A DNA stretch of 64,000 nt from an uncultured Elusimicrobia bacterium (GCA_964510095.1 CAZEAE010000015.1:33-64032); one strand, 5' to 3'. Shown: positions 3,001 through 56,151, counted from the stretch's first letter. Notes: generated by a model from the sequence alone, not told the origin. A program made the numbers and translations.

Positions 3001-6000
3001 ATACGCTTGTCCTTAAAAGCACCTACTCGGCCGGCACGGGCTTTGACGGAGGCTTTGGCATCACCTTGGACGTCGCCCAGAACATCTGGGTGGTCGGCTT
3101 CTCTTCGAACGATTACACGGCCAACCCCAACAAGCTCGACTTGGCCCTTTGGAAGTTCGACGCCACCGGCACGCAGTTGCTGGACGGCCCCATGCTCCAG
3201 CCGGGCTATGCCCAGGGGGACGACGCTGGGCTCACCGCCAAAATACTGGCGACGCCCGACCACCTGATCGTGGCCTCATCCAGGCTCAACACGCTCGGCA
3301 ACAACGACCTAGCCTTACTGCGCTTCGACCTTGACGGAGGACTCCTCAGCCAAAAACTTTGGCATGGGGCGCCGGGAGCCTCGGACGTCCCCTATGCCAT
3401 GGCCTTGGACGGCAACGGCAACTTCCTCATCGCCGGCGAATCGACGACCGACCCCGAAAGCCCCGCTTTGGCTTTCTGGTCCATCGAGGCGGTCAACGGC
3501 TACTTCTCGAGCGCCCAGACCGTTCTCGGCGTAGGCGCCGCCCGTGGCCTCGCGCTGCAATCTCAACAAGTCTGGCTGGCCGTGGGCTCCAGCGCCCCGT
3601 ATCACTTCACGGGCGGAACCACGCTTGAAGGCGACGCCGGGGCCGAAGGCCCATCGGATTTTACGCCACCCACCACGCAACTCGTCGTCCTGGGCACGGC
3701 GTCGGTCTCGGGCGGCATCATCACGGCCGTGGAAGGCTCCAGCTTCGCGCTTATCGCCCAGGACCCGCTTGAAGGCGGCTACTCCTCGGGCGTTTCGGAT
3801 ACGATCTACGTGATCGACGACGATCCTATGTGCGATAATCCCGGCCCGAACACGGGGCCGGGCACTTGCCGCAATCCCATCTACGCGGGCCCCTTCTCGT
3901 TGGCCGTCGGCACCCATACGGTCTATTTCCTGTCGAGCGACCAGGCCGGCAACGAGGAAGACCTTAGGGTTTCCTCGATCACCGTCGTCTCGGGTGACGT
4001 TCAAGACAGCACCCCGCCCGTCACCGCCTTCGTCATCGGCGAGCCCCAGTTCAGTTCGGGGACGGTCTTCATCGCCAGCACGACGCCGCTCAATTTCACG
4101 GTGTCAGAGACGGCGCAGACGTTTTTCTCTATAGACGGAGGTTCATTCACCGTCTACGCTGGCACCTTCACCCTGCCTTTGGGGGGTTCCCGCTTGGTCT
4201 CTTTCTACAGCACGGACCCGGCCGGCAACGTGGAAGCGGTCCGGGCCAGCAGCGTCACCGTGGACGCTGCCGCGCCCGTCACGATCTTGTCGCTCACCGG
4301 TTCCACGGTCGCGCTCGTGGCCCAAGATACGGCCTCGGGCGTCGCTTCTATCTTATACTCAGTCGATGACGCCGGGTCCTACCTCCTGACCTATACCGCC
4401 CCCTTCCTGCTGGCGTCAGGCACGCATACGGTCTACTACGCCTCCACCGACCAAGTCGGCAATGCAGAGATCTTGAATTCGAGCGCCGTCCTCGTGGCTG
4501 TCGCGGCGACGCCGCCCTTGGCCTTGCTCAACCCCTCCACCGGCCCCATCGGCATCCCCTTCACCCTGACCGGTACGCCTTTCGGCACTTATAGCGGCGC
4601 CAACACCCGCGTGAAGTTCGGCACGCTCTCTGCTCCCATCAGCGTCTGGAACAACACGACCATCACGGGCACCATCCCCGGCCTGCTCACCGGGACCTAC
4701 CCGGTCGTCATCGAGCGCCAGACCGGCGCCGTCGTCGTTTCCACCTCCGCCGGTACCTTCACCGTGACTCGGCCCTCGGCCTTCCTCATCAATCCTTCCA
4801 CCGGCCCCATCGGCATCCCCGTCACCTTGACGGGCACGAGCTTCGGGCCCTACGCAGGCACCCTGACTCGCCTGCGCGTCGGCGGCTCCACCTCGCCGGT
4901 CAGCGTCTGGAACGACACCACGATCTTGATCACCCTGCCCAAGCTGAGCACCGGCACAAAGACCCTCTTCATAGAGCGCGCCTCCTCAGACGGCGGCCTG
5001 CTTGCCAGCGTCACCTACTACTTCACCGTCACCGCCCCACAGGTCAATACGATGACGCCGTCCTCTGGCCCCATCGGCATCCCCATCACCTTGACCGGCA
5101 CGAGCTTCGGGCCATTCTCGGGGGCCAACACGCGCCTGCGCATCGGCGGCTCCACGGCTGCGGTCAGCGTCTGGAATGACACTACCATCTCGGCCACCAT
5201 CCCCGGCGTGATGCCCGGCGCCCAGCCGCTCATCATCGAACGCGCCACCTCAGACGGCGGCCTGATGACCTCAGAAGTCCTCACCTTCAACGTTAACTTG
5301 CCCACGCCTTCCTCCATCACCCCTTCCTCGGGCCCTATCGGCATCGCGGTCACCGTCAACGGCGTCGGCTTCGGGCCCTTCAGCGGCGCGAACACCCGCT
5401 TGCTCATAGGAGGCGCGACATCTTCCATCAGCGTCTGGAACGACACCAAGATCGTCGCCACGGTACCAGGAATTCTCACGCCGGGGCCTAAAAGCGTTGT
5501 CGTTTCGCGCTTGACGGCCGGCGGCGGCGTCGCCGAAAGCGCGCCTTTATCGTTCCAGGTCGCAGGCCTCTTCATCGCCGCCTTCAGCCCTTCCACCGGC
5601 CCCATCGGCATCCCATTTACGCTGACCGGGACGGACTTCGGCACTTATAACGGAACTAACACGCGGGTCAAGTTCGGCACGGCGCTAGCGCCCATCAGTG
5701 TCTGGAACGATACGACGATCCAGGGGACCGTGCCGGGCGTGGTGCCCGGCACCTATACCGTCAGTGTCGAGCGCCAGAGCGGCGCGAACGTCTCGGCGGT
5801 GACTACGGACTTCACCGTGCTCCTGCCGCAGGCCCAGGCCATCGCCCCTTCCACCGGCCCCATCGGCATCGCCCTGACCGTCACGGGCACGGCCTTCGGA
5901 CCTTTCAACGGGACCAACACGAACCTCTTGATCGGCGGGACCACCGCGCCCATCAGCGTTTGGAACGATTCCACCATCATCGCCACGGTGCCGGGAGCCC

Positions 6001-8261
6001 TGACGCCCGGTGTTAAGGAGGTCATCGTCCGCCGCCAGACCGCCGATGGCGGGATTGCTGACAGCGTTGCTCTGTCCTTCGAGGCTACGGCCTTGGCCAT
6101 CGGCATGCTTAATCCATCTACCGGGCCCATCGGCATCCCCTTCTCGATCACCGGCACGGGCTTCGGTCCCTACAACGGCGTCAACACGCGGGTGAAGTTC
6201 GGCCCGGCCTCGGCTCCGATCAGCGTCTGGAACGACAGTATCATCTCGGGCACCGTGCCGGGCTTAGCTCCTGGCGACTATGCGGTCGTCATCGAGCGTG
6301 AGCAAGCGGGATTGGTCACGGCCAGCCCGGCGTCTAATTTCACCGTGCAGCTGCCGCAAGTCTTTACGCTGTCGCCGTCCTCCGCCCCGATCGGCGCGCT
6401 GCTGACTTTGACCGGGACGGGCTTCGGGCCTTTTAGCGGCGTCAACACCAGCCTGTTGATCGGAGGAACCACCGCGCCCATCAGCGTCTGGAACGACGGC
6501 ACTATCAGCGTCACGGTGCCAGGAACCCTGACGCCCGGTCTCAAGGAGGTCATCGTCCGCCGCCAGACCGCCGACGGCGGCATCGCCGACAGCGCTTCCC
6601 AGCCCGTTGAGGTCACGGCTTTGGCCATCGGCGCTCTGAGCCCTTCCACCGGCCCCATCGGCATTCCCTTCTCGATCACGGGCACGGGCTTCGGGCCTTA
6701 CAACGGGGCTAACACCCGGGTCAAGTTCGGGGCGACCTCAGCGCCGGTCAGCGTTTGGAACGACAGTACCATCTCGGGCACGGTGCCGGGCCTAACTCCT
6801 GGCGGCTATGCGGTCATCATCGAACGCGAACAGGCAGGCGTGGTCTCGGCCAGCCCGGCGTCTAATTTCACCGTGCAGCTGCCGCAGGTCTTTACGCTGT
6901 CGCCCTCCTCGGCACCCATCGGCGCGCCCTTTACCCTGACCGGCACGGGCTTCGGACCTTACGCGGCAGCGGCCACAAAGCTCCTTGTCGGCGGCTTGGC
7001 CGCGCCGGTCAGCGTCTGGAATGACACGACCATCTCAGCAACCGTTCCAGGGGCCGCCGTGGCGGGGCCGCAGGCGATCATCGTGGAGCGCACGACGGCT
7101 GACGGCGGCAGTGCCGACAGCGAGCCCCAAGCTTTTGATGTCGTCGTGCCCGTCATCGACTTGCTGTCGCCGACTCTTGGCCAAGCGGGCACGGCGTTCG
7201 AGTTGACGGGCGTCGGCTTCGGGCCCTACGCCGGCAGCCAGACCCAGGCCTTGGTCGGCGGCATCGCCGCTTCACTTTCTGTTTGGAACGACGTCCTGAT
7301 CCGCGGCATCATCCCCGATTCCCTAGCCAACGGCACCTACACGATCGTCGCCGTGCGCTCGCCGGCCGGTGGGAGCGTTCAGAGCAATGAAATCGCCTTC
7401 ACGGTCGGCTCGCCGCCCAACCAAGGGGTCCTGGCCGCAAGCAGTCTGTCACCCGCTTCACGCGTAGTGGTTCATCCGGCTTGGTACTACGAAGCCGGGC
7501 TTAAGCTGCCGGCCGATGAGGGCGGGCGCGTCGAGGCGCCTAGCCGGGCTTCCGTGATCGTCCCAGCCCGCGCTCTCGATCAAGACGTCGATGTGAGCAT
7601 CTTCCGGGGCAAGAAGGGGACGGCCGACCAGCAGGCCCGTGACGGGGCTCAGACAGCCGGTCGCCTGGGCAGCGCGGGCGAGGCCGTCGAGTTCGGGCCC
7701 GAGGGTACCCGGTTCACTGCGCCTGCCACCATAGAACTGCCTTACGACCCCGGCACAGTGCCTCCTGGGCGGGAGCGCGATGTGGCGGTCCACTACTGGG
7801 ATCCAACGGCCAAGGCTTGGTTCGCCTTGCGCAGCGAGTTGGACCTGGTCCGAAAGCGCGTCCGCGCCAAGACCGATCACTTCTCTTTGTATCAGCCCTT
7901 AGTGCCGGGCGTCGTCGGGGTGACGCCGGCCGCCGGCGGCGCGGGCTTCGGCTACGTCGACATGTATGCCTTCCCGAACCCGGCTAGAGGCAGTCAACAG
8001 CCGGTCGTGCGGGTTCAGGTGGGGCTTGCTGATGTCGTCGAGGTGAGGTATTACGATGTGACCGGAAGGCTGGTGAGGAGTGCCAGCTTGAGCAATCCTA
8101 AGGCCGTCGATGACGGCAACGGCAAGGGCAACCAGTGGACCTACGATGATGTTTGGGATACCGGGGGCGTGGCGTCCGGGGTGTATGTTTATACGGTCAC
8201 GGCGAAGAAGGGTGGGAGCGGGGATATTAGAAGGACCGGAAAGATAGCGGTGATCAAGTGA
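3..8261 (+). CDS. Giant surface/secreted protein, probably 5'-truncated: beta-propeller, four Ig-like (OmpL47-type) domains, 11 IPT/TIG repeats, ZU5-like domain, C-terminal T9SS type A sorting-like domain
   Basis: The frame is open from position 3 (RAALFPGTIIDN...) with no stop before the TTG at 54. It contains repeated D.xPPxT...Y(S)xDxAGNxE Ig modules, LDxxxNxWxxG propeller blades, 11 PSxGPIG...SVWND repeats, the ZU5-like FGPEGTRFTAPATIELPY, and the tail YAFPNPARG...SGVYVY...TGKIAVIK. Confidence 0.85.
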   Translation, partial: RAALFPGTIIDNPTISILDQGGAAVACGAATNTQSVQVKVEDFISGPGRLEIFQNNAFQTANGGFVGGDYFDGTSRNFTAADPGLSILGGASAPMAEGSYTVRAFDQSGNRGPDCGFSISPPTPPRLTFSNGRVNYKNIVGTTSLNTSTLADPQSYILVESDRGDLASVQIDGGALLPGFPPGINADSLPAGTSRVEKLDLQAGSPIGPGEHTITALNTAGQKTEAKWRVTSMAATLSPGSNSTYSESAGFNAAVRFNINSGISLQPTGQIVRLSDPLTVFRTIPVGGDPPSALLQVDVGTSSTLADQYITRVRDIEGNSIDIITDLSLGDVSFNPFPLDTIPKSHSSTEPWTSAPVDLLAQRILPGAILRTGLTRNPRTGAPDYANPGTAGAALSGNTLYLPIGDVQEVGEIEGRLDAGTVFPTAVRFESGPSGIGLSVTTTTPNIFYPLPPSFTLQLSLFKTPPTQALIQHCTTPVDGNNSCQALDFQPSGSFQPEMVGVSLSTVSRPATFPGFFFAGAQTVPIAGGITVDLTATAPGVVSVSQGSSQPEPGYHTVSPINTYQLLFPENAIVGPVTVHVPISEVSAETLAKLKVALVRDCELQLVPSGAAGNAVTFTASLSGDYIFVVDDFSNRAIVRSPDGLFSFVSEAPGAELTVNPVVSNQSQLDNLFASIGLSRTGQVYQLGPTGRSFATPGVVKVCGVSGTSLELYQYTAEGVRERLPGLRNDTERGYVAARVGGFSSLFGSFMQAQPVAAQDLAAPVSQIFFSPAAAIDAEGRFLLSSATLVSLTAVDPFFPGAPQSGVAATHYQVDQEPPSVYATPFSVASGSHTIVFYSIDAAGNTESNKQVSTTDAPPAAQASASSGLALSADAAGNLWEVVSDTVGVSLLKFGASGQFLAGISLPEAGDQGAWSIRFDAAGNALAVGTASGPATVGIDVAVYKVAGSGDLLLSRRLFDGGFNGHDFALDASDNLWLTGAISGEQGFALGLWKYTMAEDTLVLKSTYSAGTGFDGGFGITLDVAQNIWVVGFSSNDYTANPNKLDLALWKFDATGTQLLDGPMLQPGYAQGDDAGLTAKILATPDHLIVASSRLNTLGNNDLALLRFDLDGGLLSQKLWHGAPGASDVPYAMALDGNGNFLIAGESTTDPESPALAFWSIEAVNGYFSSAQTVLGVGAARGLALQSQQVWLAVGSSAPYHFTGGTTLEGDAGAEGPSDFTPPTTQLVVLGTASVSGGIITAVEGSSFALIAQDPLEGGYSSGVSDTIYVIDDDPMCDNPGPNTGPGTCRNPIYAGPFSLAVGTHTVYFLSSDQAGNEEDLRVSSITVVSGDVQDSTPPVTAFVIGEPQFSSGTVFIASTTPLNFTVSETAQTFFSIDGGSFTVYAGTFTLPLGGSRLVSFYSTDPAGNVEAVRASSVTVDAAAPVTILSLTGSTVALVAQDTASGVASILYSVDDAGSYLLTYTAPFLLASGTHTVYYASTDQVGNAEILNSSAVLVAVAATPPLALLNPSTGPIGIPFTLTGTPFGTYSGANTRVKFGTLSAPISVWNNTTITGTIPGLLTGTYPVVIERQTGAVVVSTSAGTFTVTRPSAFLINPSTGPIGIPVTLTGTSFGPYAGTLTRLRVGGSTSPVSVWNDTTILITLPKLSTGTKTLFIERASSDGGLLASVTYYFTVTAPQVNTMTPSSGPIGIPITLTGTSFGPFSGANTRLRIGGSTAAVSVWNDTTISATIPGVMPGAQPLIIERATSDGGLMTSEVLTFNVNLPTPSSITPSSGPIGIAVTVNGVGFGPFSGANTRLLIGGATSSISVWNDTKIVATVPGILTPGPKSVVVSRLTAGGGVAESAPLSFQVAGLFIAAFSPSTGPIGIPFTLTGTDFGTYNGTNTRVKFGTALAPISVWNDTTIQGTVPGVVPGTYTVSVERQSGANVSAVTTDFTVLLPQAQAIAPSTGPIGIALTVTGTAFGPFNGTNTNLLIGGTTAPISVWNDSTIIATVPGALTPGVKEVIVRRQTADGGIADSVALSFEATALAIGMLNPSTGPIGIPFSITGTGFGPYNGVNTRVKFGPASAPISVWNDSIISGTVPGLAPGDYAVVIEREQAGLVTASPASNFTVQLPQVFTLSPSSAPIGALLTLTGTGFGPFSGVNTSLLIGGTTAPISVWNDGTISVTVPGTLTPGLKEVIVRRQTADGGIADSASQPVEVTALAIGALSPSTGPIGIPFSITGTGFGPYNGANTRVKFGATSAPVSVWNDSTISGTVPGLTPGGYAVIIEREQAGVVSASPASNFTVQLPQVFTLSPSSAPIGAPFTLTGTGFGPYAAAATKLLVGGLAAPVSVWNDTTISATVPGAAVAGPQAIIVERTTADGGSADSEPQAFDVVVPVIDLLSPTLGQAGTAFELTGVGFGPYAGSQTQALVGGIAASLSVWNDVLIRGIIPDSLANGTYTIVAVRSPAGGSVQSNEIAFTVGSPPNQGVLAASSLSPASRVVVHPAWYYEAGLKLPADEGGRVEAPSRASVIVPARALDQDVDVSIFRGKKGTADQQARDGAQTAGRLGSAGEAVEFGPEGTRFTAPATIELPYDPGTVPPGRERDVAVHYWDPTAKAWFALRSELDLVRKRVRAKTDHFSLYQPLVPGVVGVTPAAGGAGFGYVDMYAFPNPARGSQQPVVRVQVGLADVVEVRYYDVTGRLVRSASLSNPKAVDDGNGKGNQWTYDDVWDTGGVASGVYVYTVTAKKGGSGDIRRTGKIAVIK
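4511..7407 (+). repeat. Intragenic array of 11 IPT/TIG-like repeats (about 85-90 aa each)
   Basis: The SVWN motif occurs 11 times in the translation. Near-identical DNA blocks recur 528 bp apart (gccagcccggcgtctaatttcaccgtgcagctgccgca at 6321 and 6849). Confidence 0.9.
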
Positions 8262-45327: not shown

Positions 45328-48300
45328 TCAGTCGCCGGACCAGGGGTTGAAGCGGCCGCCCTTGACCGGAGCGGCGTCGCAGAGCGCCTTGTAGCGCTCG
45401 ATCTGATCGTCCGCGGCGCCGTCCTTGACCAGGCTGGAGAGCGTCATCGAGTAGCTCATGTTGTACTCGGTGGAGGACCAGATGCCGCCCTTGGAGGCGG
45501 CCACCGACTTGGCGGCGGCTTCGATGCGGCTGTCGGCCACGGGGCGGCCTTGGGAGGAGAGGCGCGTCGAGATCTGATAGTTCCGGCCCGAGGCGCTGGG
45601 CAGGGGCGGCAGGTTCTTGCCGTATTCCCCGTCGGCGGCCTTCATCTGCTCGACCGAGGAGAAGACCATGTCGATCCAAGGCCAGGAGCCTTCGTGGCTG
45701 AAGGAGACGGAGATCACGCCGGAGATCTCCTTCAAACGCGTGGCATGCTCGGCTTCGAAAGCCTTGTTCTCGGCGGCCACGGCCTCAATCGACATCTGCT
45801 TGGCCACGTAGTAAGCCTTGCCGTCCAACCCGCTGATCTGAGACGGCGCCGCCTTCATCGCGGCGCGGTCGCTGAAGGTCACCGTCACGCGCCGGGAGGC
45901 CACGACGACCGACTCAGCCCCCATGATCGCCTCGCCTTTCGCTTTGGCGTCGGCGTCCAGCTGCTCCGGGGAATACTTCGCCGCCTTGGCTTTGGCGGGC
46001 TTGCGCACCATGCTGGACATCCCGCCGAGCCTCAGGGCTTTCTTCACCTTCTCCATGAGGGTCTGGCCCTGATCCTGGGCCGGGACCTTCAGGGCCTGCG
46101 CCTCTCCGGTGCGGGCATTGACCTCGACCGCGCCGCCGTTATCATCATAGAAGCGGAACCACAGGTCGTCGCCCTCGGTCTTCTTGACCATCTCCAAAGA
46201 GACGCTGACGCGGGAAGACAGCCACGGGAAGGCTTTCTGCGCGATGGTCAGCGCGGGCTCCGGCAGCATCACCGCGCCGCGGCTGAACAGATAGGGAGAC
46301 ATCGGGAAGAGCATCAGGTCGCTACGGACCGGGGCGCTTCGGTAGACCTGGGTCCTGGCGTTGAACTTGCCCGTGCCGGTGACGGGGCCGCGCGAGAAGT
46401 CCACGGAGATGATGTCGGCCGAGGCGGCTTTAGGGGAATCCATCACGTAAAAGGAGAACTTCCAATGGTCGCCATCGCGCAGCGGCATGGAGGCGGTGGC
46501 CTGGGCGTACATGAGCTTGGCGCCCGGCTTGCCCATCGCCTCGGCGGCGGCAACGGCCTCGTAATAGGCCCGCTCGAAGAGCTGACCAGCGGGGGCCAGC
46601 GTCTCGCGCGGGCGCATCATCCCAGCCATGCCGACCATGCCCGCCATGCCCATCATCTGGAAAAGGTCCTCGATGCCGTGCGGGCCGAAGTACGGCATGC
46701 CCTCGGGGAGCACCGGCCCGGTGACATTGCCGGTGGCGACGTCGGTGAGGACCCGGAAGAGCGTGTAGTAGCCGACCGCGCCGCCGGCGAGCAGGGCGAC
46801 GAAAGCCAGCGCCGACTCCAGCTTGCTCGGTTCCTTATATACGTCAGCTTTGACGGAGTAGGCGGCCATCGCGTCCAAGATGATCTTGGAGGCCGCGGCG
46901 CCTTTGCCCGGCATCACATACCCGTTCTTCATCCTCGGGTCGGCCGTGCCGCCCACGCTCAGGGAAAGCATCCCGGGCAGGCCCTTCTCCATGTTGCGGT
47001 CGGTCTCATTGCCGGTCAGAGGCATCGGATTGCCGCTGAGGCGCTCGCCCACCCTCTTGGCCTTGGCCTCGACTTTCGACAGCTCCCCCTCTTTATGCCG
47101 GGGCATGTACATGCTGTCGCCGATGGCGACCGCCTCGTCGGCAGTCATGCCCAGGGCCTTGGCGATGTAGGCCACCGAGACCGACTTGTCGAGCTTCGAG
47201 AACATGATGTACGGCGGCTTCTTCAGGTCCTTGGCCATGCGCGGGATGACTTCGGCCTCGTAGTGAAGGGCGTCGAGTTCTTTCTGGAGCAGTCCGGCCG
47301 CTTCCTTGACCTTGGCTTCCGGCGTCCCGGGGACGAACATCATCGCGTAGCCGTAGGGGTTGTAGCTCTCGGCGGGGTCCTTCGGAGTCTCGGTGTTCTG
47401 CGTGACGCCGATGGAGGGCAGCAGGGCCTTGGTGGCCTCGGCGGCCGACCTGATGATCGCGACCTGGTCCTCGGGCAGCGCCGGCGCCTCCCAGACCTTC
47501 TGCGGTTCACCCTGGGCGTCATAGCGGTAGACGCGTCCGCCGGAATTGGCGGCCACGTACATGCCGGCGCGGTCCGCCGCGGGGATCGACGCCAGCGACT
47601 CGAACACCGTCAGCGTCTCGGAGTTCGGACGCTTGACGTCGGGACGGTCGGTGATGACGACGACTTCCTTGCCGTTCTTGCGCACGGCGGCGACGGCGGC
47701 GGCCATCTCGGGGGTGAGCACGGAGTTGTGCGGACCGATCGTGTCGTCGAAGTCGGAGAAGATCACCTTCTTGGCGGCCGCCTGGGCGACGACCTTGGCC
47801 GCCAGCTTCGGACCGACGACCGGCATGCTGATGACCAGGCCGTAGACGGCGGCGATGCCCGCCAGCGCGCGGCGGCGGAATCCGTAAGAGCCGGCGCCGT
47901 CGACCGGCTTGGGGCCGTTCTGCTGCGAAGCGGCGGGCGCGGCGGGAGTCTCCGCCGTCTTTTCCGACGTGGCCGCAGCGGCGGCTTTGGAGAGTCCCGA
48001 GCCGCTGGGCTCGGCGGAAGGGGCGCTGACCGAGACTTCCCCGGCGGCCGCGGCGGCGGCTTTCCCCGTGATGAGGTCTTCGATGCGGCGGCCGGAGGCC
48101 GCGGAATCAGCAGCGCCGGCTTGAGGCTGGGCGATGGCCGAGATCTCAGGCGCGATGGCTTGAGAAAGGCCCTCGATGGCAAGAGGGCCGCCCAGGGCGG
48201 CGGGACTGACGGCCGGGGCAGCGGGTGCGGCGGTGGGGATAAGAGACGGAAGAGCGAGGGTCGGAGCCAGCGACATGCCGGGGACCAGGCCGGCGATGGG

Positions 48301-48465
48301 CGCGATCCGGACGGCGGGCGCGGCGGATATGGGGGCCTGGATGATCGGCGCGGCTTTGAAGGCGGCGGCGACGGCTTCGTGGCAAAGAGGTCCGGGCGAA
48401 AGCCAAACGAGCAGGGCGGCGAGGGCGGCGGCGACTCGGCGGCGCATCGATGAGGCCTGGATCAT
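45328..48465 (-). CDS. Large signal-peptide protein with Ala/Pro-rich spacer, HAD-IIB hydrolase domain, TM helix and unknown C-terminal domains
   Basis: GGAGG SD before ATG 48465; HAD motifs IFSDFDDT, VITDR, DKSVSV and AIGDS; PepSY-like VEVNARTGE. Confidence 0.8.
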   Translation of the reverse strand: MIQASSMRRRVAAALAALLVWLSPGPLCHEAVAAAFKAAPIIQAPISAAPAVRIAPIAGLVPGMSLAPTLALPSLIPTAAPAAPAVSPAALGGPLAIEGLSQAIAPEISAIAQPQAGAADSAASGRRIEDLITGKAAAAAAGEVSVSAPSAEPSGSGLSKAAAAATSEKTAETPAAPAASQQNGPKPVDGAGSYGFRRRALAGIAAVYGLVISMPVVGPKLAAKVVAQAAAKKVIFSDFDDTIGPHNSVLTPEMAAAVAAVRKNGKEVVVITDRPDVKRPNSETLTVFESLASIPAADRAGMYVAANSGGRVYRYDAQGEPQKVWEAPALPEDQVAIIRSAAEATKALLPSIGVTQNTETPKDPAESYNPYGYAMMFVPGTPEAKVKEAAGLLQKELDALHYEAEVIPRMAKDLKKPPYIMFSKLDKSVSVAYIAKALGMTADEAVAIGDSMYMPRHKEGELSKVEAKAKRVGERLSGNPMPLTGNETDRNMEKGLPGMLSLSVGGTADPRMKNGYVMPGKGAAASKIILDAMAAYSVKADVYKEPSKLESALAFVALLAGGAVGYYTLFRVLTDVATGNVTGPVLPEGMPYFGPHGIEDLFQMMGMAGMVGMAGMMRPRETLAPAGQLFERAYYEAVAAAEAMGKPGAKLMYAQATASMPLRDGDHWKFSFYVMDSPKAASADIISVDFSRGPVTGTGKFNARTQVYRSAPVRSDLMLFPMSPYLFSRGAVMLPEPALTIAQKAFPWLSSRVSVSLEMVKKTEGDDLWFRFYDDNGGAVEVNARTGEAQALKVPAQDQGQTLMEKVKKALRLGGMSSMVRKPAKAKAAKYSPEQLDADAKAKGEAIMGAESVVVASRRVTVTFSDRAAMKAAPSQISGLDGKAYYVAKQMSIEAVAAENKAFEAEHATRLKEISGVISVSFSHEGSWPWIDMVFSSVEQMKAADGEYGKNLPPLPSASGRNYQISTRLSSQGRPVADSRIEAAAKSVAASKGGIWSSTEYNMSYSMTLSSLVKDGAADDQIERYKALCDAAPVKGGRFNPWSGD

Positions 48466-48553
48466 GGATCCTCCCTTTGGGGCGTCTGCAGGTATTATAA
48501 GCCCCGCCGGGGCGTTTGCTCTGGGCCCTTGGGGGAAGCGCGCGAAGTTTTTT

Positions 48554-48640
48554 GGCCTAGGCCTATGGACCCATAGCGTCATAGGCCCTAAGGCCCATGG
48601 CAGGGCCAAAGGGCCCACCTACAATAGGCCTATCGGTCCT
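48554..48640. promoter_or_regulatory. GG(N)CC-pair motif cluster D
   Basis: About nine GGCC/GGACC/GGTCC cores within 87 bp of a divergent intergenic region, including ggcctaggcc and gggccaaagggccc. Confidence 0.55.
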
Positions 48641-48648
48641 GGAGGTCT

Positions 48649-49875
<1,227 letters not shown>

Positions 49876-49881
49876 AGCCGG

Positions 49882-52800
49882 TCAGCGCGGGGAGGCGGAC
49901 GCGGCGGGCGCGGGCGCCGTCTTCAGGATCTTGCCGAGGGCCTCTTCAAGCCGCGCCGCCGTTTCCTTGTATGTCGCCAGGTCGCTGCCGTAAGGGTCTC
50001 CGATGTCCCCGCCTCCCGTCTCGGCGTAGCCGTTGAGGGTATGGACCTTGCCGCGAGCTTGAGGGTAGCGTTCCAGTATCTGCGCGACGTGGCCGCCGGT
50101 CATGCCGAGGATGACGTCCGCGCCCTCGATATCCTGCCGGGTCAGCCCCTGCGCCTGGTGGCCCTGGGCGTCGATGCCGTAGCCCTGCAGCGCCTCCAAG
50201 GCCGGTCCCGGCATGGCCTGCCCCGGATACGCCGATAAGCCTCGCGAGGAGGTCTCGAAGCCCTCCGAGACCATGCCCTTGGCCAGATACTCGGCCATGG
50301 CGCTGCGGCAGGTATTGCCGGTGCAGACGAAAAGCAGCTTCTTCGCCTTCGGTTTGGCGGCGGCGACGGGAGCCGAGGCTTCGGCGTTCTTGGTCACCGG
50401 CCGCGACTGCAGGATATAGAGCTTGTCGCCGACGAACCCCCATTCCAGGTCGAGAGCATAGCCGAAGTGGCGCTCGAGGGCGACGGCCACCGTGTTGAGG
50501 AGCTCGAGCTGCTTGGGCGACAGCGACCGGGCCCGCCTGCGCTCGGGAGCCATGCGCTTCTCGGCGACGCCTTTGCCCGAGACGTCGCGGACGATGGCGA
50601 GCTTCTTGTCCGAGATCATCGCGGGCAGGATCTCGCGGCCGAGCTTCTTGGAGACGACGTACTGGTCCGGGGCCACGCGGCCGGAGACGATGCCCTCCCC
50701 CAGGCCGAAGGCGGCGTTGACGATCAGGCGCGCCGTGTTGCCGGAGACCGGATCCTGCGTGAAGGCCACGCCGGAGACCTCGGAGGGCGCCATCATCTGG
50801 ATGACGACGGCCTGGTTCAGGTTGGACAGGCTCAAGCCCTTGGTCTGCCGGTAGAGCAAGGCGCGCGGGTTCCATAAAGAGGCCCAGACCTCCTTGACAT
50901 GCTCCAGCAGGACGGCGTTGTCCACGTAAAGATGGGTGTCGCCGGCGCCGGCGAACGCCGCGTCGGCGCCGTCCTCATCGACGGCGGAAGAGCGCACGGC
51001 CAAGGCTTCCTTATCCAAGCCTTCCCGGCGCACGGCTTTGAGGATCTCCCGGCCGACGCCCTTGGAAGCGGACAGCTCGGCGCGCAAGACAAGCTGGCGG
51101 ATGCGCGAAGACCTTTCCTCGATGGACAGGCCGCTCTGCGCGCCGATGGCGTCGATCTGGGTCTCGATGCCCGCCTCCTTAAGGAACGAACGGTAAGCGG
51201 AGATGGTCAGGGCCACGCCGGGCGGCACCGAGCCTCCGGCTTTGCGCACGACCTGCATGATCTCGCCGAGCTTGGAAGCCTTGCCCCCCACCCAAGGGAC
51301 GTCCAGGTCGAGGACCTCCGCCAGGGACAAGACGGCGGGGACCTTCGCGCGCCTGGAGGCCAGCCGCATCTGCTCCAAGCGCTCCACCTGCGCCTCCCAT
51401 TCGCGGTAATAGCTGGGGGCCAGCTTGCGCCGCTTGGCCTTGGCGATGAGGGCCTTGATGCGCGGCAGGACCTCCAAGGTCACGGACGGGTGGTCGTGGG
51501 CATGGCGCTCGAGCTCGGCGATATCCTGCTTGATAAGGGTCTCGGCGCGTTCCTTAGCGGCCGCGTTCAGGGATTGATAGGTGTGCGAGGCGGTCTTGAA
51601 CTCGGCGGCGTCGCGCTGGAGGGCCAGCGCCAGCTCCTGCAAACGGTTCTGACGGCCGGCGGCGCCGAGCACGGCGCGTTCGACGGCTTCGATGGAATCG
51701 GTCTCGCGCAAGACCTCCATGGCCTCGCGGTGCTGGGCGTAGGCGGAGCGCGCCTCGGCCGTGAAAAGGTCGGTCTCGGTCTGCGCGATCCAGGCCTGCA
51801 TGCCGCCGACCGAGGAGGCCTGCAAGACCTGACGGGTGCGCTCGAGCTCGAAAGCGGTCTCCGGCCGGCCCGCGGTCCGAGAGACGAGCTCGGAGAGGAC
51901 CTCGCGGGCGAAGGCCAGCTTCTGCAGCGAGCCCAGCGCGGGGCCATCCACGGCCGCCTCCACGGCGCGGCTCACGGCGCCGGGCTTAGGGTCGCCGTCG
52001 TAGCGCTCGAGGAGCTCGCTGACGGCGAGCATGCTCTCCTGCGACGCGGCGGGGAAAGCCTCCAGCTTGCCGGAGACCGGGTCGAGGCGGACGACGGCGC
52101 CTTCCGGCAGGCGGACCCTCCGCGAGGAAGAGACGGCGCGCACCGCCAGCCCCCGGACCCGCCGCGGATCCTTGAACTCAGCCGCCTCGAGGCTCAAAGC
52201 CCCGTCCTCCCAGGCCGCCTGGCTCAAGATCAAGGCGCTGATGCCCATCTCTCGGGTGGTGATGGCGGCATGGCTGAGCAGGCCGCCGGAGGTGGTGACG
52301 ACGGCGCGGGAGTTGCGGATGGGGCCCAAGTCGTCGGGCGTGGTATAAGGGGCGACGAAGATGTAGCCGCCCTTGGCCGCCTTTTCCTTGTCATAGGTGA
52401 TCCGCGCCGTGATCGTCCGGCCGGGGCCGGGGCTGGCGGCCAAGCCGCTGAAGAGCCGGCCCACCGACAAGGAGATCATGGGCTCCGCCTTGAGCTTGCG
52501 CAGCATGAGCCCCCCTCCCGCGGGCGTGTCCGACGGGGAGAAGGCGGCGACGGGATGCCCCTGCTGGGCGAGGCGGTGGAAGAGGGCCTCGGGCGGCAGG
52601 GTCCGAGGCGAAAGCCCCATCTCAAGGGTCCCGATCTCGGCGCGGGCCAGTCCGACCTGGCCGGTCTGGGGGTCGCGCAGGACGTAGAGGTTGAGCCATT
52701 TGTCGGAATCGACGCGACGCTGGGCGCGCTCCAGGGTCAGCGTGCCGATGGAGCCTATCGCTTGGAAGTCGAAGAGCCCGGGGTCCAACGAGCCGACGGC

Positions 52801-55476
52801 TTCGGCCATGCGGCCGGCGGCGACGTGGCTCTCGGTGAAGAATTCGGCCAGGTTGGCGAGCGGATCGTAGTCCCGGTTCCGGGCCAGGCCGCCTTCGGGC
52901 AGGACGCGGACCTCGCCGCGGGCGATGGCGCGCTCGATGGGTCCGTTGAAGTGCTTGTCGACGGCGCGCTGGCCGAGCAGCCCGTCGGGCAAGGGCGGAA
53001 GGCCGAGGTTCGTCAGGGTCTTCGAGAGGCCGGCCTGAAGCCGCGCGCGCTTGGAGGCCTCGCGCTGGTAATCATTGAAGCCCGCGACCATCTTGTCGTG
53101 CTGGTCGTGGACGTAGAAAGGCAGGTTGCCCTCGGCCAAGGCGATGTCGACCCAGGCGTCGATGCGCCGAGCGCTCTCCTCCGAGGTGGTCGAGCCCTCG
53201 AGTATGATGGGCAGGGCGAAGTCGACGCCCACGGTGGAATGCAGGGCCTGGATGACCAGGGAAAAGTTGTCCATCATGCGGTCGACGCTCTGGGATTGAT
53301 GGTCCTTGTCGACGATGGCGGTGAGGAAGCCGTTGTCCTCCTCCACGGCGAAGCCGAGCTTCCTCAGGAAGGAGGCGACGTAGTAGAGGCGCGACTGGTT
53401 GGCGAGGCTGGTGCCCCACTCCTGATAGCGCACGCGCAGCATGCCGCCTTCGTCGGGCGGCAGGAAATTGGAGTAGACCTCGGCGCTGTGGGCGCCGAGC
53501 TGGAAGTGTCCCCAGAATTGGTGGTCCTGCATGATGAGCGAACCGTTAGGGGTGTCATGAGCGTCGCTCAAGGCGTGGACCAGGGCCTTGAGGCCCGGAG
53601 AGACGATGCGGCCGGCCTTGGTCAAAGGGTCGTTGGAAAGGTCGACGAGGGAGATCTCCTTGACGCTGTCTCCTTTCCGGAGCTGAAGGACCATGTTGGC
53701 CGGAGAGCTGTCCTGAGAGCGGCCGACGCTTTCCAGGGCCTTCTGGTGGATGACGTTGATATAGCGGTGCAGGGACTCCTTGTCGATGGGCACGACGAGG
53801 GCGACGGCCTTGGCGGGCAGGAGCTCGGAGTCGGCTAGGCCCTTGGCCAGGGCGTCGATCTTAGCCGAGACGGCGTCGACGCCCTTGGCCAGCTCGGCGG
53901 CGTCGTCTTCGGATTCAGCGAGCGCCTGATAGGCGGCGGCCATGGCTTTGACGTTGGCGGCGATGGCGCGGGCGTTCTTGACGGTCATGTGGGTGGAGTT
54001 CTGCGCGACGAGCTCGAGGGCGGCGAAGTTGGCCTCGATCAAGCGGTTGAAGGTGTCGAAGCGCCGGCGCAAGCCGGCGATGGAGTCCTCGGTCCCGCCG
54101 CGGGCGACCTTGACGGTGACGGCCTGGTCGGAGTCGAGATGGGCGGCGAAGCCTTCCGGCGCGCCGTGGGACAAGCGGTAGCCCAGGGCGCGGCGGACGA
54201 CCTTGCGCGGGGCGCGGACGACGAGGGCGGAAGGATCCTCCTCGACCTGCTTCCTGAGAGAGGCGAGGAGCTTGGGGTCGGCCTCGACGCCGAGGGCGGG
54301 GCTCCGGCGGACGCGCAGGCCGAAGAGCTCCTTCCACCAGTCCTTGCTGGTGGCGGCCTCATAGAACCTTTGCCAGGAGTCGGCGAGGGAGTCGAGCGTG
54401 TTCTGCCAGGACTTCTGCAGAAGGGTCTTGAAGGGTACGGGCGGTAAGGATCGGACGGCCTTGGGGAAAGCGGCCTCGAGGATCCGCTTGCCGGCGGGAT
54501 CGAAGACGGTGCGCAGCTCGACCTTGAAGCCGGAGGCGGCGACAGGGTCGACCTTGGCCTGGGCGTTGATGATGACGAAGGTCTTCTGGACGGCGGAAAG
54601 GTCGGTGAAGGCGGGCTGGCCGCTGTAGAGCAGGCTTTCGTTCCAGAACTTCATGGCCGAGAAGACGGGGGCCTTGGCCTCGGAAGTGAGAAGCCCGAGC
54701 TGGGCCTTTATAAGGGTATGGCGCAGGAGGTCCTGCATCGCATCGGGGCTGCGGGCGGCCAGGCTGGACTTGAGGTCCTTGATGGCGGCGGGCAGCTGGC
54801 GCTTCTCGGCCTCGGCGGCGGCTTGGCGGTAGAGCGCGGGGGCGTCAAGCTCGTCGGCGTCTTCGTAGGCCTCGGAGAGCTTTTGGACGGCGGGGCTGAC
54901 GTAGGGAGCGAGGGCGGATTTCTTGAAAGCGCCGGTCTTGGCGGCGCCGACGAGGTCGTCGCCGGCGGGTTTGAGCTTGGTGACGTCGAAGATGGAGTTG
55001 AGGGCAGCGGCGACTTGGCCGGAGGCGCCTTTCTCTTCGGCTTTTTGAGCGGCGCCGAGGTTATCGACGGCCTGGCCGAGGCCGCTGAACGCGGCGGGCG
55101 CTTTCTCGAGGGGCGCGGGCGTTGCGGCTTGGTCGGCAGGGGCGGCCTTGGCGGCTTCGGCGCTGGGGATGGCGCTGGGAAGCGATTGCGGCTGGACCTG
55201 GGCGGGGCCGGAGAGGCCGGCGGCGCCTTGAGCGGCGGGAGCAAGGTCGAGGGCGGGCGCCCCCTGGATGGGGCTGATCCCTCCTCTAAGATCGAGGGAG
55301 AGCTGACCGCCGGTGGAGAGGTTGGAGCCGGGGGCGGCTTTGATCGTGCCGGCTTGTCCCGCTTGCCCTTGTCCGGCGCCTTCGACCTTGGGGACGCTGA
55401 TGTCGACGGCCTGGGCCGAAGCGGCCCAGGCGGAGACCAGGACCGCGGCTAGGAGCCGCCGTCGATAGAAGGGCAT
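49882..55476 (-). CDS. 1864-aa signal-peptide protein: Ala/Pro spacer, unknown domains, PEP-utilizer phospho-His domain, PPDK-type ATP-grasp domain, C-terminal LMW phosphatase
   Basis: TTSGGLLSHAAITTREMG; VGGKASKLGE, AVRSSAVDEDG..AAFAG, GLGEGIVSG, DLEWG...ILQSRPVT; FVCTGNTCRSAMAE and DPYG. Confidence 0.88.
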   Translation of the reverse strand: MPFYRRRLLAAVLVSAWAASAQAVDISVPKVEGAGQGQAGQAGTIKAAPGSNLSTGGQLSLDLRGGISPIQGAPALDLAPAAQGAAGLSGPAQVQPQSLPSAIPSAEAAKAAPADQAATPAPLEKAPAAFSGLGQAVDNLGAAQKAEEKGASGQVAAALNSIFDVTKLKPAGDDLVGAAKTGAFKKSALAPYVSPAVQKLSEAYEDADELDAPALYRQAAAEAEKRQLPAAIKDLKSSLAARSPDAMQDLLRHTLIKAQLGLLTSEAKAPVFSAMKFWNESLLYSGQPAFTDLSAVQKTFVIINAQAKVDPVAASGFKVELRTVFDPAGKRILEAAFPKAVRSLPPVPFKTLLQKSWQNTLDSLADSWQRFYEAATSKDWWKELFGLRVRRSPALGVEADPKLLASLRKQVEEDPSALVVRAPRKVVRRALGYRLSHGAPEGFAAHLDSDQAVTVKVARGGTEDSIAGLRRRFDTFNRLIEANFAALELVAQNSTHMTVKNARAIAANVKAMAAAYQALAESEDDAAELAKGVDAVSAKIDALAKGLADSELLPAKAVALVVPIDKESLHRYINVIHQKALESVGRSQDSSPANMVLQLRKGDSVKEISLVDLSNDPLTKAGRIVSPGLKALVHALSDAHDTPNGSLIMQDHQFWGHFQLGAHSAEVYSNFLPPDEGGMLRVRYQEWGTSLANQSRLYYVASFLRKLGFAVEEDNGFLTAIVDKDHQSQSVDRMMDNFSLVIQALHSTVGVDFALPIILEGSTTSEESARRIDAWVDIALAEGNLPFYVHDQHDKMVAGFNDYQREASKRARLQAGLSKTLTNLGLPPLPDGLLGQRAVDKHFNGPIERAIARGEVRVLPEGGLARNRDYDPLANLAEFFTESHVAAGRMAEAVGSLDPGLFDFQAIGSIGTLTLERAQRRVDSDKWLNLYVLRDPQTGQVGLARAEIGTLEMGLSPRTLPPEALFHRLAQQGHPVAAFSPSDTPAGGGLMLRKLKAEPMISLSVGRLFSGLAASPGPGRTITARITYDKEKAAKGGYIFVAPYTTPDDLGPIRNSRAVVTTSGGLLSHAAITTREMGISALILSQAAWEDGALSLEAAEFKDPRRVRGLAVRAVSSSRRVRLPEGAVVRLDPVSGKLEAFPAASQESMLAVSELLERYDGDPKPGAVSRAVEAAVDGPALGSLQKLAFAREVLSELVSRTAGRPETAFELERTRQVLQASSVGGMQAWIAQTETDLFTAEARSAYAQHREAMEVLRETDSIEAVERAVLGAAGRQNRLQELALALQRDAAEFKTASHTYQSLNAAAKERAETLIKQDIAELERHAHDHPSVTLEVLPRIKALIAKAKRRKLAPSYYREWEAQVERLEQMRLASRRAKVPAVLSLAEVLDLDVPWVGGKASKLGEIMQVVRKAGGSVPPGVALTISAYRSFLKEAGIETQIDAIGAQSGLSIEERSSRIRQLVLRAELSASKGVGREILKAVRREGLDKEALAVRSSAVDEDGADAAFAGAGDTHLYVDNAVLLEHVKEVWASLWNPRALLYRQTKGLSLSNLNQAVVIQMMAPSEVSGVAFTQDPVSGNTARLIVNAAFGLGEGIVSGRVAPDQYVVSKKLGREILPAMISDKKLAIVRDVSGKGVAEKRMAPERRRARSLSPKQLELLNTVAVALERHFGYALDLEWGFVGDKLYILQSRPVTKNAEASAPVAAAKPKAKKLLFVCTGNTCRSAMAEYLAKGMVSEGFETSSRGLSAYPGQAMPGPALEALQGYGIDAQGHQAQGLTRQDIEGADVILGMTGGHVAQILERYPQARGKVHTLNGYAETGGGDIGDPYGSDLATYKETAARLEEALGKILKTAPAPAASASPR

Positions 55477-55573
55477 GTTCGAAGTATAAGGCCGGAAGCG
55501 TCATCTGTCCAGGGGTTTTTGAGGGTTGAGCAGCCCCCATAAAACGAGCGATAATCAGCGATGAATCGGGGCC

Positions 55574-55620: not shown

Positions 55621-55854
55621 ATGACAAGGGTCCAGATATTGCTCGATAAGAAAGAGGTTCAGGCCCTCCGCCGTGAGGCCGCACAGAGCGGCAAGAGCTA
55701 TTCCCTGCTCGTGCGCGAGGCCATCGACAATCTCTATGTTTCGCGCTTTTCTGATGGCGAGATCTCAGGGATGGCCAAGGCCGCCAAACAGGGGAAGGGG
55801 ACCCGAAGATTCAAGGATCTGCAAGACGCCCGCCGCCACCTCTGGTCGCTTTAG
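55621..55854 (+). CDS. Ribbon-helix-helix (CopG-like) antitoxin
   Basis: MTRVQILLD...LRREA...SYSLLVREAID pattern; 77 aa; lies upstream of a RelE-like gene. Confidence 0.8.
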   Translation: MTRVQILLDKKEVQALRREAAQSGKSYSLLVREAIDNLYVSRFSDGEISGMAKAAKQGKGTRRFKDLQDARRHLWSL

Positions 55855-55869
55855 CACAGCCCCCCCGGC

Positions 55870-56151
55870 ATGCTCGAATTCGCTTTTGCCCAGAGCTTTC
55901 AGAGGAGCTTGAAGGGCCTGCATCCGCCGGAGAAAGTGGCCATTCAGCGGCGCGTGGACTCATTCATGCTGGCCATGGACGTGCGGAGGATCCCCACCGG
56001 TTTCGGCCTCAAGAAGCTCGGCGACGATCTCTGGGAGTTCCGCACGGATCTCCCTATCCGCGTTTTTTTCCAGTGGAGCAAGAACACAGTCACCTTCTTG
56101 TTTCTCGGCAACCACAACGAGGTTCAACGGTTTTTAAAGCATTACGTGTAG
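55870..56151 (+). CDS. RelE/ParE-superfamily toxin
   Basis: 93 aa; F..SF.RSLK.L, LKKL..DLWEFR...IRVFF and LGNHNEV. Confidence 0.78.
   Translation: MLEFAFAQSFQRSLKGLHPPEKVAIQRRVDSFMLAMDVRRIPTGFGLKKLGDDLWEFRTDLPIRVFFQWSKNTVTFLFLGNHNEVQRFLKHYV

Follow-up and report, generated by a model that had tools for sequence, protein, structure and literature searches.

A predicted exported dikinase of reversed domain order, fused to a YwlE-like phosphatase, and the undescribed family to which it belongs

We analyzed a stretch of 64,000 nucleotides from an uncultured Elusimicrobia bacterium (GCA_964510095.1 CAZEAE010000015.1:33-64032), hereafter the window, with emphasis on one large gene that encodes a dikinase and a low-molecular-weight (LMW) phosphatase in a single polypeptide (Table 1). 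From its N-terminus, the protein consists of a putative Sec-type signal peptide, a low-complexity spacer, a "pre" region, a large N-domain, a phospho-histidine swivel, a helical linker, an ATP-grasp domain, and the phosphatase. The G+C content of the window is 63-69%. The open reading frame was taken to be the true coding frame because its GC content is 0.89 at third codon positions compared to 0.69 at first and 0.47 at second positions. A 979-residue open reading frame on the opposite strand within the gene (50899-53838, plus strand) was dismissed as a high-GC artefact.

Table 1. Features of the dikinase gene and of associated genes (window positions unless a locus handle is given)
Feature	Residues	Position	Strand	Basis or remark
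Whole gene, predicted exported reverse-order dikinase fused to LMW phosphatase		49882..55476	-	1864 residues, ATG start; open reading frame and translation
Promoter-like element, CCCCTGGAC-N17-TATACT-N6-ATG		55477..55525	-	Layout shared with orthologous loci
Sec-type signal peptide	1-23	55408..55476	-	MPFYRRRLLAAVLVSAWAASAQA/VD; n-, h- and c-regions and AxA by inspection
Low-complexity Ala/Gly/Pro/Gln spacer	24-170	54967..55407	-	A 23%, G 12%, P 9%, Q 8%
Clade-specific "pre" region	171-400	54277..54966	-	No Pfam match
Family-defining N-domain, presumed acceptor-binding/phosphotransfer	401-990	52507..54276	-	Profile, conservation, AlphaFold2 model
Phospho-histidine swivel	1000-1100	52177..52479	-	PF00391 and TSGGLLSHAAI
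Swivel/ATP-grasp linker, about 280 residues, helical, Ala/Arg/Leu/Glu-rich		51337..52176	-	Composition; comparable length in all family members
ATP-grasp nucleotide-binding domain (PPDK_N)	1395-1705	50362..51294	-	PF01326
YwlE-like LMW phosphatase	1715-1850	49927..50334	-	PF01451 (LMWPc), 4e-27
Dikinase/MaeB loci of cytoplasmic relatives		L011:1046-7800; L012/L013:8001-15160; L014:6001-13241; L015:6001-13337; L016:6001-13496		Dikinase of about 1650 residues
S8 subtilase gene		48649-49875	+	Peptidase_S8 match, 3e-60
Gene for HAD-motif protein		45328-48618	-	About 1050-1096 residues
Probable toxin-antitoxin cassette		55621-56151	+	Two genes
Gene for probable adhesin-like protein		54-8261	+	At least 2735 residues

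Three domains of the protein are recognized by Pfam. The PEP-utilizers domain (PF00391) matches residues 1037-1084 (E = 4.4e-11). Its catalytic histidine, His1069, is encoded at 52270-52272 and lies in the motif GGLLSHAAI, which begins at residue 1064. The swivel motif T-GG-LSHA is nearly invariant over 63 family members. The PF01326 match of the ATP-grasp domain (E = 2.4e-77) covers 318 of the 328 profile positions and includes the motifs VRSSAVDED and LDLEWGF; the top PDB sequence matches of this domain are the phosphoenolpyruvate (PEP) synthases 8a8e and 9dae and the rifampin phosphotransferase (RPH) 5hv1. The third domain, the phosphatase, carries CTGNTCRS at residues 1718-1725 (C1718, T1722, C1723, R1724, and S1725) and DPYG at residues 1827-1830, with D1827 as the general acid.

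The same arrangement was found with NCBIfam. The ATP-grasp region (residues about 1380-1721) aligns to positions 5-361 of a PpsA model and the swivel region (residues about 1007-1084) aligns to positions 386-462 of a PPDK model. In the window protein, the swivel precedes the ATP-grasp domain and, therefore, the order is reversed compared to PpsA, PPDK, and RPH. The NCBIfam scores fall far under the equivalog cut-offs (295 versus 598 bits for NF005057). Pfam gave no match over residues 1-1000 of the protein, about 820 of which lie outside the signal peptide and spacer, and the PEP/pyruvate TIM barrel PEP-utilizers_C (PF02896) was not matched anywhere in the protein at E <= 1. The original prediction had described precisely this architecture, with a histidine domain placed before the ATP-grasp domain as in glucan water dikinase (GWD) and with no PEP/pyruvate barrel. 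It was confirmed in every sequence detail, including the exact positions of GGLLSHAAI, CTGNTCRS, and DPYG and of the histidine near 52270.

The N-domain is the part of the protein that defines a family. A HMMER search of 1.84 billion representative proteins with a profile of residues 401-990 (alignment A1) matched 358 clusters (at 50% identity) at E <= 1e-3, 193 of them under 1e-30. It was this exhaustive search that revealed the family. In word-indexed searches, the whole protein and the N-domain as queries retrieved nothing other than close Elusimicrobiota fragments and one more protein, P0002, and a diverse alignment as the third query added no further match. The N-domain spans about 550-590 residues with invariant H577, H663, G678, D723, and G908. 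The residues conserved family-wide include N483, H570, H577, Q578, H663, G677, G678, Y684, D723, K724, D752, R934, and D935, in addition to several further glycine and proline positions. Polar residues make up most of this set, a pattern to be expected of a catalytic or ligand-binding site rather than of a scaffold, and the N-domain is presumed to be the site of acceptor binding and transfer.

Structure prediction provided a second view of this domain. A first AlphaFold2 model, built from a 7-sequence alignment, reached a predicted local distance difference test score (pLDDT) of 73.7, and Foldseek searches with it gave noise only. The model built from a 63-sequence alignment reached a pLDDT of 92.4 and a predicted template modeling score of 0.89, and shows a mixed alpha/beta fold with a three-helix bundle, several beta-sheets, about 20 beta-strands in all, and more helices. 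A pyruvate-binding barrel in this region had been named at the outset as the finding that would make the protein an ordinary PEP synthase, and the fold predicted by the model is not a barrel. Foldseek searches of the model against PDB and BFVD gave no match at E < 1e-3 (best query-normalized TM-score 0.17 or less), and weak likenesses of sub-domains to 2plg and to OspC helical bundles (target-normalized TM-score about 0.45-0.49, E > 0.1) fell short of significance and were discounted. Searches with the N-domain were likewise empty in a Pfam scan at E <= 10 and in a PDB profile search, and gave no match in PADLOC. Judged from the profile matches, the invariant polar residues, and this model, the N-domain is a real, conserved globular module that is structurally novel, with no relative in Pfam, PDB, or BFVD.

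The window protein was the seed of the family profile and contains the complete family set of N-domain, swivel, linker, and PPDK_N. The same order, with a linker of about 300 residues, was found in every member tested, apart from two circularly permuted proteins. In these two (P0094 and P0139), PPDK_N comes first, ahead of N-domain and swivel, which indicates more than one rearrangement of the module. The simplest form of the module is illustrated by P0002, a protein of 1496 residues without signal peptide or phosphatase, which is collinear with the window protein from residue 474 to the swivel and then again over the ATP-grasp domain. The "pre" region (residues 171-400) was found in the close relatives P0001, P0031, P0059, and P0064 only.

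Two branches were distinguished among 156 family proteins. Group a (83 proteins) is cytoplasmic, has a median length of 1670 residues and an N-terminal motif AIExEFxVAxG...RV..AC, and comes from Acidobacteriota and others, including one member from Vicinamibacterales (Acidobacteriota). Group b (73 proteins) includes the window protein, the Elusimicrobiota proteins P0018, P0035, P0074, and P0139, and the Omnitrophota proteins P0069 and P0081. Many members of group b are 2-5 thousand residues long, and some carry HEAT repeats. The database names of family members are generic, such as "PEP/pyruvate-binding domain-containing protein", "pyruvate, water dikinase" (some JGI entries), or [quoted passage not shown], and no account of the family, of the dikinase/phosphatase fusion, or of the MaeB operon described below was found in the literature searched. 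Collectively, these sequence comparisons indicate that the window protein is not a one-off giant and is a member of a previously undescribed, uncharacterized family of reverse-order His-swivel dikinases.

The LMW phosphatase domain was found in group b only (0 of 83 group a proteins), where it occurs in 18 proteins at three different positions. First, it follows the ATP-grasp domain in the window protein, P0001, P0012, P0013, and P0041, the last with two copies. Second, it lies between the swivel and the ATP-grasp domain in 11 proteins (Pfam-confirmed for P0034). Third, P0094 and P0126 have it between N-domain and swivel. Its presence at three independent positions points to a functional partnership rather than an accident, and by this distribution the pairing of dikinase and phosphatase is a selected one. 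The proposal that the protein is a bifunctional writer and eraser gains indirect support from these fusions in different lineages. In a separate locus (L017:2963-11574), two family paralogues lie in tandem, one of 1264 residues without phosphatase and one of 1604 residues with LMWPc between swivel and ATP-grasp domain; downstream are a 417-residue unknown gene and then a cluster of sugar epimerase, methyltransferase, and glycosyltransferase genes.

The resemblance of the phosphatase to the arginine phosphatase YwlE, also part of the original prediction, is real as judged by alignment. The domain aligns end to end with YwlE of Geobacillus (4pic) and B. subtilis (1zgg) at 1e-22 to 1e-24. Its top PDB sequence matches are 4egs and YwlE 4pic/1zgg (1e-22 to 1e-26), while Wzb is weaker (about 4e-11). 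Across the family, the P-loop is almost always C-T-G-N-T-(C/D)-R-S, with DP(Y/F)G about 110 residues downstream. The threonine at P-loop position 5, T1722 in the window protein, is found in all orthologues and in most of the family's LMW domains. In the passage of PMC7772506 that cites Fuhrmann et al. 2013, a threonine at this position is given as a determinant of phosphoarginine over phosphotyrosine specificity, which is shifted by a swap to isoleucine.

Several lines of evidence suggested that the window protein is exported. First, a Sec-type signal, as originally proposed, is present by inspection, with the n-region MPFYRRR, the h-region LLAAVLVSAWAAS, and the end AQA/VD (the slash marks the end of the putative signal peptide). 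This N-terminus is kept in each of the 8 orthologous loci whose 5' end is intact, where the proteins begin MAPxPLRGALAFLLxALLAxPAxA/VEVSLP...GQAGT and continue into a Gly/Ala/Pro-rich spacer. The mature N-terminus that opens the spacer, V(D/E)(I/V)SxP...GQAG, is kept among orthologues as well. The h-region is Ala-rich and moderately hydrophobic (Kyte-Doolittle mean 1.66). A Tat signal, considered on account of the RRR in the n-region, was rejected since the orthologues have one arginine only. Second, no further hydrophobic or transmembrane segment that would place the catalytic domains back in the cytoplasm was found over the whole protein. Third, cysteine is depleted, which provides independent support for export. 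Only 2 of 1864 residues are cysteines (0.11%), both in the phosphatase P-loop, compared to a background of 0.97% in 26 other window proteins (Poisson P about 3e-6). The same is seen between the branches, as median cysteine content is 0.23% in group b and 0.94% in the cytoplasmic group a, a four-fold depletion, and signal-peptide-like N-termini were found in at least 24 of 61 Met-initiated proteins of group b and in 2 of 72 of group a. Export of the window protein is thus well supported by its sequence, if not proven.

The start of the gene bears on this issue. A promoter-like element lies immediately upstream, and the layout CCCCCTGGCG-N17/18-TA(C/A)ACT-N6-ATG is found ahead of the genes in nine loci (L001, L002, and L004-L010). 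The form shared by the window and these nine loci can be spelled CCCC(C)TGG(C/A)-N17/18-TA(C/T/A)ACT-N6-ATG. The -10-like hexamer sits 6 nucleotides ahead of the dikinase ATG, which fixes this ATG, at the head of the signal peptide, as the start of translation. The element suggests a leaderless transcript starting at this ATG, and its conservation suggests that leaderless mRNAs may be used in these Elusimicrobiota. Gene callers that read through the element give spurious "RGYT" N-terminal extensions (e.g., in P0062, L004, and L009).

A scan of one genome per species for orthologues returned nine loci, all in Elusimicrobiota metagenome-assembled genomes, with 50-54% identity from residue about 320-420 to the C-terminus. 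Five of the nine carry full-length genes of 1742-1761 residues with the same swivel, ATP-grasp domain, and CTGNTCRS/DP(Y/F)G phosphatase. The identical architecture is found in P0001, P0012, and P0013 and in loci L001, L002, L004, L005, and L007. Because it recurs in at least eight independent Elusimicrobiota assemblies, the fusion is real, and the concern of an assembly chimera at the domain junctions was not borne out. One orthologue, on a 3.1-Mb Elusimicrobiota contig (L010:9730-14805, GCA_965283875.1), is split in three pieces, consisting of a short signal-peptide open reading frame ending in a stop, a piece of 999 residues with N-domain and swivel, and a piece of 602 residues with linker and PPDK_N; a phosphatase domain was not recorded there. 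This is either a decaying gene or the result of indel errors in long-read assembly.

The cytoplasmic branch has a recurrent genomic partner. In five of five group a loci, the dikinase gene is directly upstream of, and on the same strand as, a gene for a MaeB-type hybrid malic enzyme (malic, Malic_M, and PTA_PTB domains; about 750 residues), and the two genes overlap by 4 nucleotides in four of the five. All neighbors other than MaeB differ. The pair looks like an undescribed conserved two-gene operon, and this arrangement is strong evidence that group a is functionally coupled to the malate/pyruvate node. In gluconeogenesis from C4 acids, PpsA classically works together with malic enzyme. Since the cytoplasmic relatives appear to be translationally coupled to MaeB, the ancestral acceptor was probably pyruvate, with PEP as the product, or MaeB itself. 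Either the N-domain would provide a non-homologous pyruvate/PEP site, as part of a malic enzyme and PEP synthase route, or the dikinase would act on MaeB. No malic enzyme was found near group b genes, and neither a malic enzyme nor a family paralogue was found in the 64-kb window. The exported Elusimicrobiota/Omnitrophota branch has lost the MaeB linkage and presumably acts on something else.

Taken together, our preferred reading, to which we assign a probability of roughly 55%, is that the window protein is a Sec-exported, soluble, multidomain phosphotransfer enzyme of the reverse-order His-swivel dikinase family. The C-terminal ATP-grasp domain would bind ATP and phosphorylate His1069, a reaction in which, as for PpsA and GWD, ATP would yield AMP, Pi, and His~P. 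Tethered by a flexible linker on either side, the swivel would ferry the phosphate to the N-domain, where an invariant polar cluster (H570, H577/Q578, H663, D723/K724, D752, and R934/D935) would bind the acceptor and catalyze the transfer. The YwlE-like domain (C1718, R1724, D1827, and T1722) would remove phosphate, most likely from the phosphorylated product, so that the protein as a unit would both add phosphate to a single target and take it off again. The sequences show which domains and catalytic motifs are present, that the signal peptide is conserved, that the protein belongs to the family, and that the phosphatase fusion recurs; which way phosphate flows, that the N-domain holds the acceptor, and that the product is dephosphorylated are what we infer. 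The original prediction as a whole is partly supported; its domain parsing, domain order, YwlE likeness, and signal peptide stand, and no secretion-system gene that would support the delivery it envisaged was found at the loci examined.

Several observations weigh against this reading. It is not obvious where an ATP-dependent enzyme would obtain ATP outside the cytoplasm. To our knowledge, the periplasm contains no ATP and, because of this, an exported enzyme must work where ATP is available; by pure inference, action in or at another cell would be the simplest reading of this need. The signal peptide was assigned by eye, and the family is known from sequence and predicted structure alone. No secretion, translocation, or immunity gene was found conserved beside the gene at the loci examined. 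The gene content of the window, with cytochrome oxidase, cytochrome b, haem, and fatty-acid synthesis, looks free-living and aerobic. If kinase and phosphatase shared one product, the result would be a futile cycle unless the two were regulated or spatially separated. Furthermore, some P-loops are degenerate, with the cysteine absent in P0040 and in the second copy of P0041, and the phosphatase is absent from the branch member P0014 and from the PPDK_N-bearing fragment of L010.

The best surviving alternative, a tentative one, is the delivery into another cell put forward in the original prediction. The protein may be a secreted effector or toxin that is exported by Sec and delivered into a prey or host cell, where it would use the target's ATP to phosphorylate protein arginine or histidine residues or an envelope polymer, with the YwlE-like domain tuning or reversing the mark. 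Dependence on ATP outside the cytoplasm is otherwise hard to explain, and the conserved export signals and the depletion of cysteine are consistent with this possibility. The module is also found in signal-peptide proteins of several thousand residues from Omnitrophota and Elusimicrobiota (P0069, P0081, P0018, and P0074), PPDK_N and HEAT domains are reported in a preprint to be frequent in the predation-linked Omnitrophota "Archaeovorin" giants (10.1101/2023.11.21.568195), and the taxonomic setting is compatible. The only two cysteines are the P-loop pair, which might hold the phosphatase oxidized and inactive until it reaches a reducing cytoplasm. However, neither a translocation domain, a secretion system, an immunity gene, nor a conserved partner was found at the loci examined, PADLOC gave no match, and the organism looks metabolically self-sufficient. 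A broader and equally doubtful proposition is that the exported branch represents a new class of secreted ATP-dependent phosphotransfer effectors, in which a His-swivel dikinase with a structurally novel acceptor domain marks a molecule, either in another cell or in the envelope, with a phosphoramidate or phosphoester and an on-board YwlE-type phosphatase erases the mark; it would follow that the cytoplasmic relatives work in complex with MaeB, as a PEP synthase without TIM barrel or as a regulator.

Somewhat less likely, the N-terminal stretch is not a working export signal, or is a membrane tether only, and the protein is an intracellular metabolic or regulatory dikinase with the phosphatase as a built-in regulator. 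ATP would then pose no difficulty, since it is found only in the cytoplasm, and the cytoplasmic relatives possess the entire catalytic core. The limited hydrophobicity of the Ala-rich h-region (mean 1.66) would fit, and doubts about certain extracellular predictions are also voiced in the giant-gene preprint itself. Against this proposal, the n-, h-, and c-regions and AxA are kept across orthologues of only 50-54% identity and are followed by a typical low-complexity spacer, and the distribution of charges predicts an N-in, C-out topology. Moreover, both the four-fold depletion of cysteine and the absence of MaeB linkage are specific to the branch that bears signal peptides.

A third proposal, which we consider improbable, differs from our preferred reading in the target of the phosphatase. 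The YwlE-like domain would act on the enzyme's own phospho-histidine, whose N-P bond is like that of phosphoarginine, and would either reset the swivel, with a net conversion of ATP to AMP and two Pi, or serve as a cysteine phospho-relay station. The LMW domain is directly beside the swivel in 13 relatives, within the linkers that the swivel traverses, and a phosphoarginine-type pocket is adapted to phosphoramidates; the retention of degenerate pseudo-phosphatase copies would suggest a binding role. However, the general-acid DP motif is kept, as is typical of true hydrolases with external substrates, the LMW domain in the clade of the window protein is C-terminal, past the ATP-grasp domain, and the literature searched contained no report of a YwlE-type enzyme acting on phospho-histidine. 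The weakest explanation, that of an ordinary PEP synthase or PPDK or of an assembly or annotation artefact, is effectively refuted: the best NCBIfam matches are PEP synthase models and JGI calls some relatives "pyruvate, water dikinase", but the score is 295 versus 598 bits with the ATP-grasp domain alone aligned, PEP-utilizers_C is absent, the order is reversed, the model of the N-domain shows no TIM barrel and has no PDB match, and the architecture is seen in many independent assemblies.

The genomic neighborhood of the gene was also surveyed. None of the window neighbors recurs in L001-L009, whose conserved flanks are housekeeping genes of closely related genomes (coaD-like, PrcB_C, M14, M3, and Lgt), and no conserved neighbor of any kind was found beside group b genes at the loci examined. 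Convergent with the dikinase gene, with 6 bases between the two ends, is a gene for a secreted S8 subtilase with the signal peptide MKKTLKLSPALALALLLGPAPARA; a functional link between the two was dropped, as their adjacency is not conserved in orthologous loci. Next to it is a gene whose likely start, MIQASSMRRRVAAALAALLVW..., is signal-peptide-like. Its product has a long Ala/Pro-rich spacer, a HAD-type DxDxT motif (FSDFDDTIG), a weak Hydrolase_3 match, and a cysteine content of 0.18%, and may be a second exported phosphatase-like protein. The gene is not conserved beside dikinase orthologues. Between the dikinase gene and a Na+/H+ exchanger gene is a two-gene cassette, which is probably a type II toxin-antitoxin pair. 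It encodes a ribbon-helix-helix antitoxin-like protein of 78 residues (MTRVQILLDKKEVQALRREA...) and a RelE/ParE-type toxin-like protein of 93 residues, the latter with no Pfam match. At the far end of the window is an open reading frame, the 5' end of which may lie outside the window, that probably encodes a large surface adhesin-like protein with about ten IPT/TIG domains, Big_13, and a cysteine content of 0.29%.

Compared to known systems, the window protein combines familiar parts in an unfamiliar way. The closest functional analogy is the plant dikinase GWD1, which, like PWD, has acceptor-side domains, then a His domain, and then a C-terminal ATP-binding domain; its domain order, pivoting His domain, and large size have been described (PMC13553574). 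GWD1 cycles with separate glucan phosphatases (SEX4, LSF2, and laforin) on the same polymer, and the fusion found here suggests the same logic. However, the window protein is not a GWD, as the central domain of GWD1 is all-alpha with 20 helices, whereas the predicted fold of the N-domain is mixed alpha/beta, and no CBM45 or CBM20 domain, as found in GWD and PWD, was detected in the window protein by Pfam. In addition, the phosphatase is of the LMW-PTP/YwlE type and fused, while those of the plant system are separate dual-specificity phosphatases, and the window protein is bacterial and bears a signal peptide.

With PpsA and PPDK, the window protein shares a homologous ATP-grasp domain (PF01326, 2e-77) and a swivel with a GG..SHAA histidine. 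Compared to these enzymes, it is twice as large, its order is reversed, a domain of about 590 residues and unknown fold takes the place of the TIM barrel, and it has a signal peptide and a phosphatase fusion. In RPH and the prodigiosin ligases PigC, RedH, and HapC, which belong to the same superfamily, the pyruvate barrel has been swapped for another acceptor domain (NCBIfam; PDB 5hv1 and 5fbs), and these enzymes show that the cassette of ATP-grasp domain and swivel can be re-targeted. They are, however, cytoplasmic proteins of about 870 residues without phosphatase, in the order ATP-grasp domain, acceptor domain, and swivel, and their acceptor domains are unrelated to the N-domain. The CTGNTCRS P-loop and the DP(F/Y)G loop of the LMW domain are those of the protein arginine phosphatases YwlE (Bacillus and Geobacillus) and PtpB (S. 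aureus). YwlE itself, at about 150 residues, stands alone in the cytosol and opposes the arginine kinase McsB, while the domain in the window protein is fused to a dikinase and predicted to be exported, and no McsB-type kinase is involved as far as seen.

The Omnitrophota Archaeovorin giants include relatives of the window protein with 2-5 thousand residues, a signal peptide, the same module, and sometimes HEAT repeats. The window protein, at 1864 residues, is far smaller and has neither HEAT repeats nor transmembrane segments. A preprint on these giants (10.1101/2023.11.21.568195) lists PPDK_N and HEAT among their commonest domains, reads PPDK_N as pyruvate/PEP interconversion, and makes no mention of the N-domain, of a reversed order, or of a fused phosphatase. 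Our comparison suggests that the Archaeovorin PPDK_N domains belong instead to the reverse-order dikinase module.

These findings have several implications. The dikinase superfamily is small and well studied, and each new acceptor domain in it has brought new chemistry, namely, PEP formation, phosphorylation of starch, inactivation of rifampin, and prodiginine ligation. The acceptor domain, the reversed order, the export signal, and the recurrent YwlE-type fusion are new within this superfamily, and the family that carries the new acceptor domain spans hundreds of sequence clusters and at least three phyla. The link of the cytoplasmic branch to MaeB makes the substrate of the family directly testable. 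The exported branch has recruited a YwlE-type phosphatase repeatedly, which raises the question of how and where an ATP-dependent enzyme works outside the cell. If the phosphatase were specific for phosphoarginine, arginine-type phosphorylation would be tied to a kinase class other than McsB. The family is also relevant to the giant proteins of Omnitrophota, whose PPDK_N domains are unexplained.

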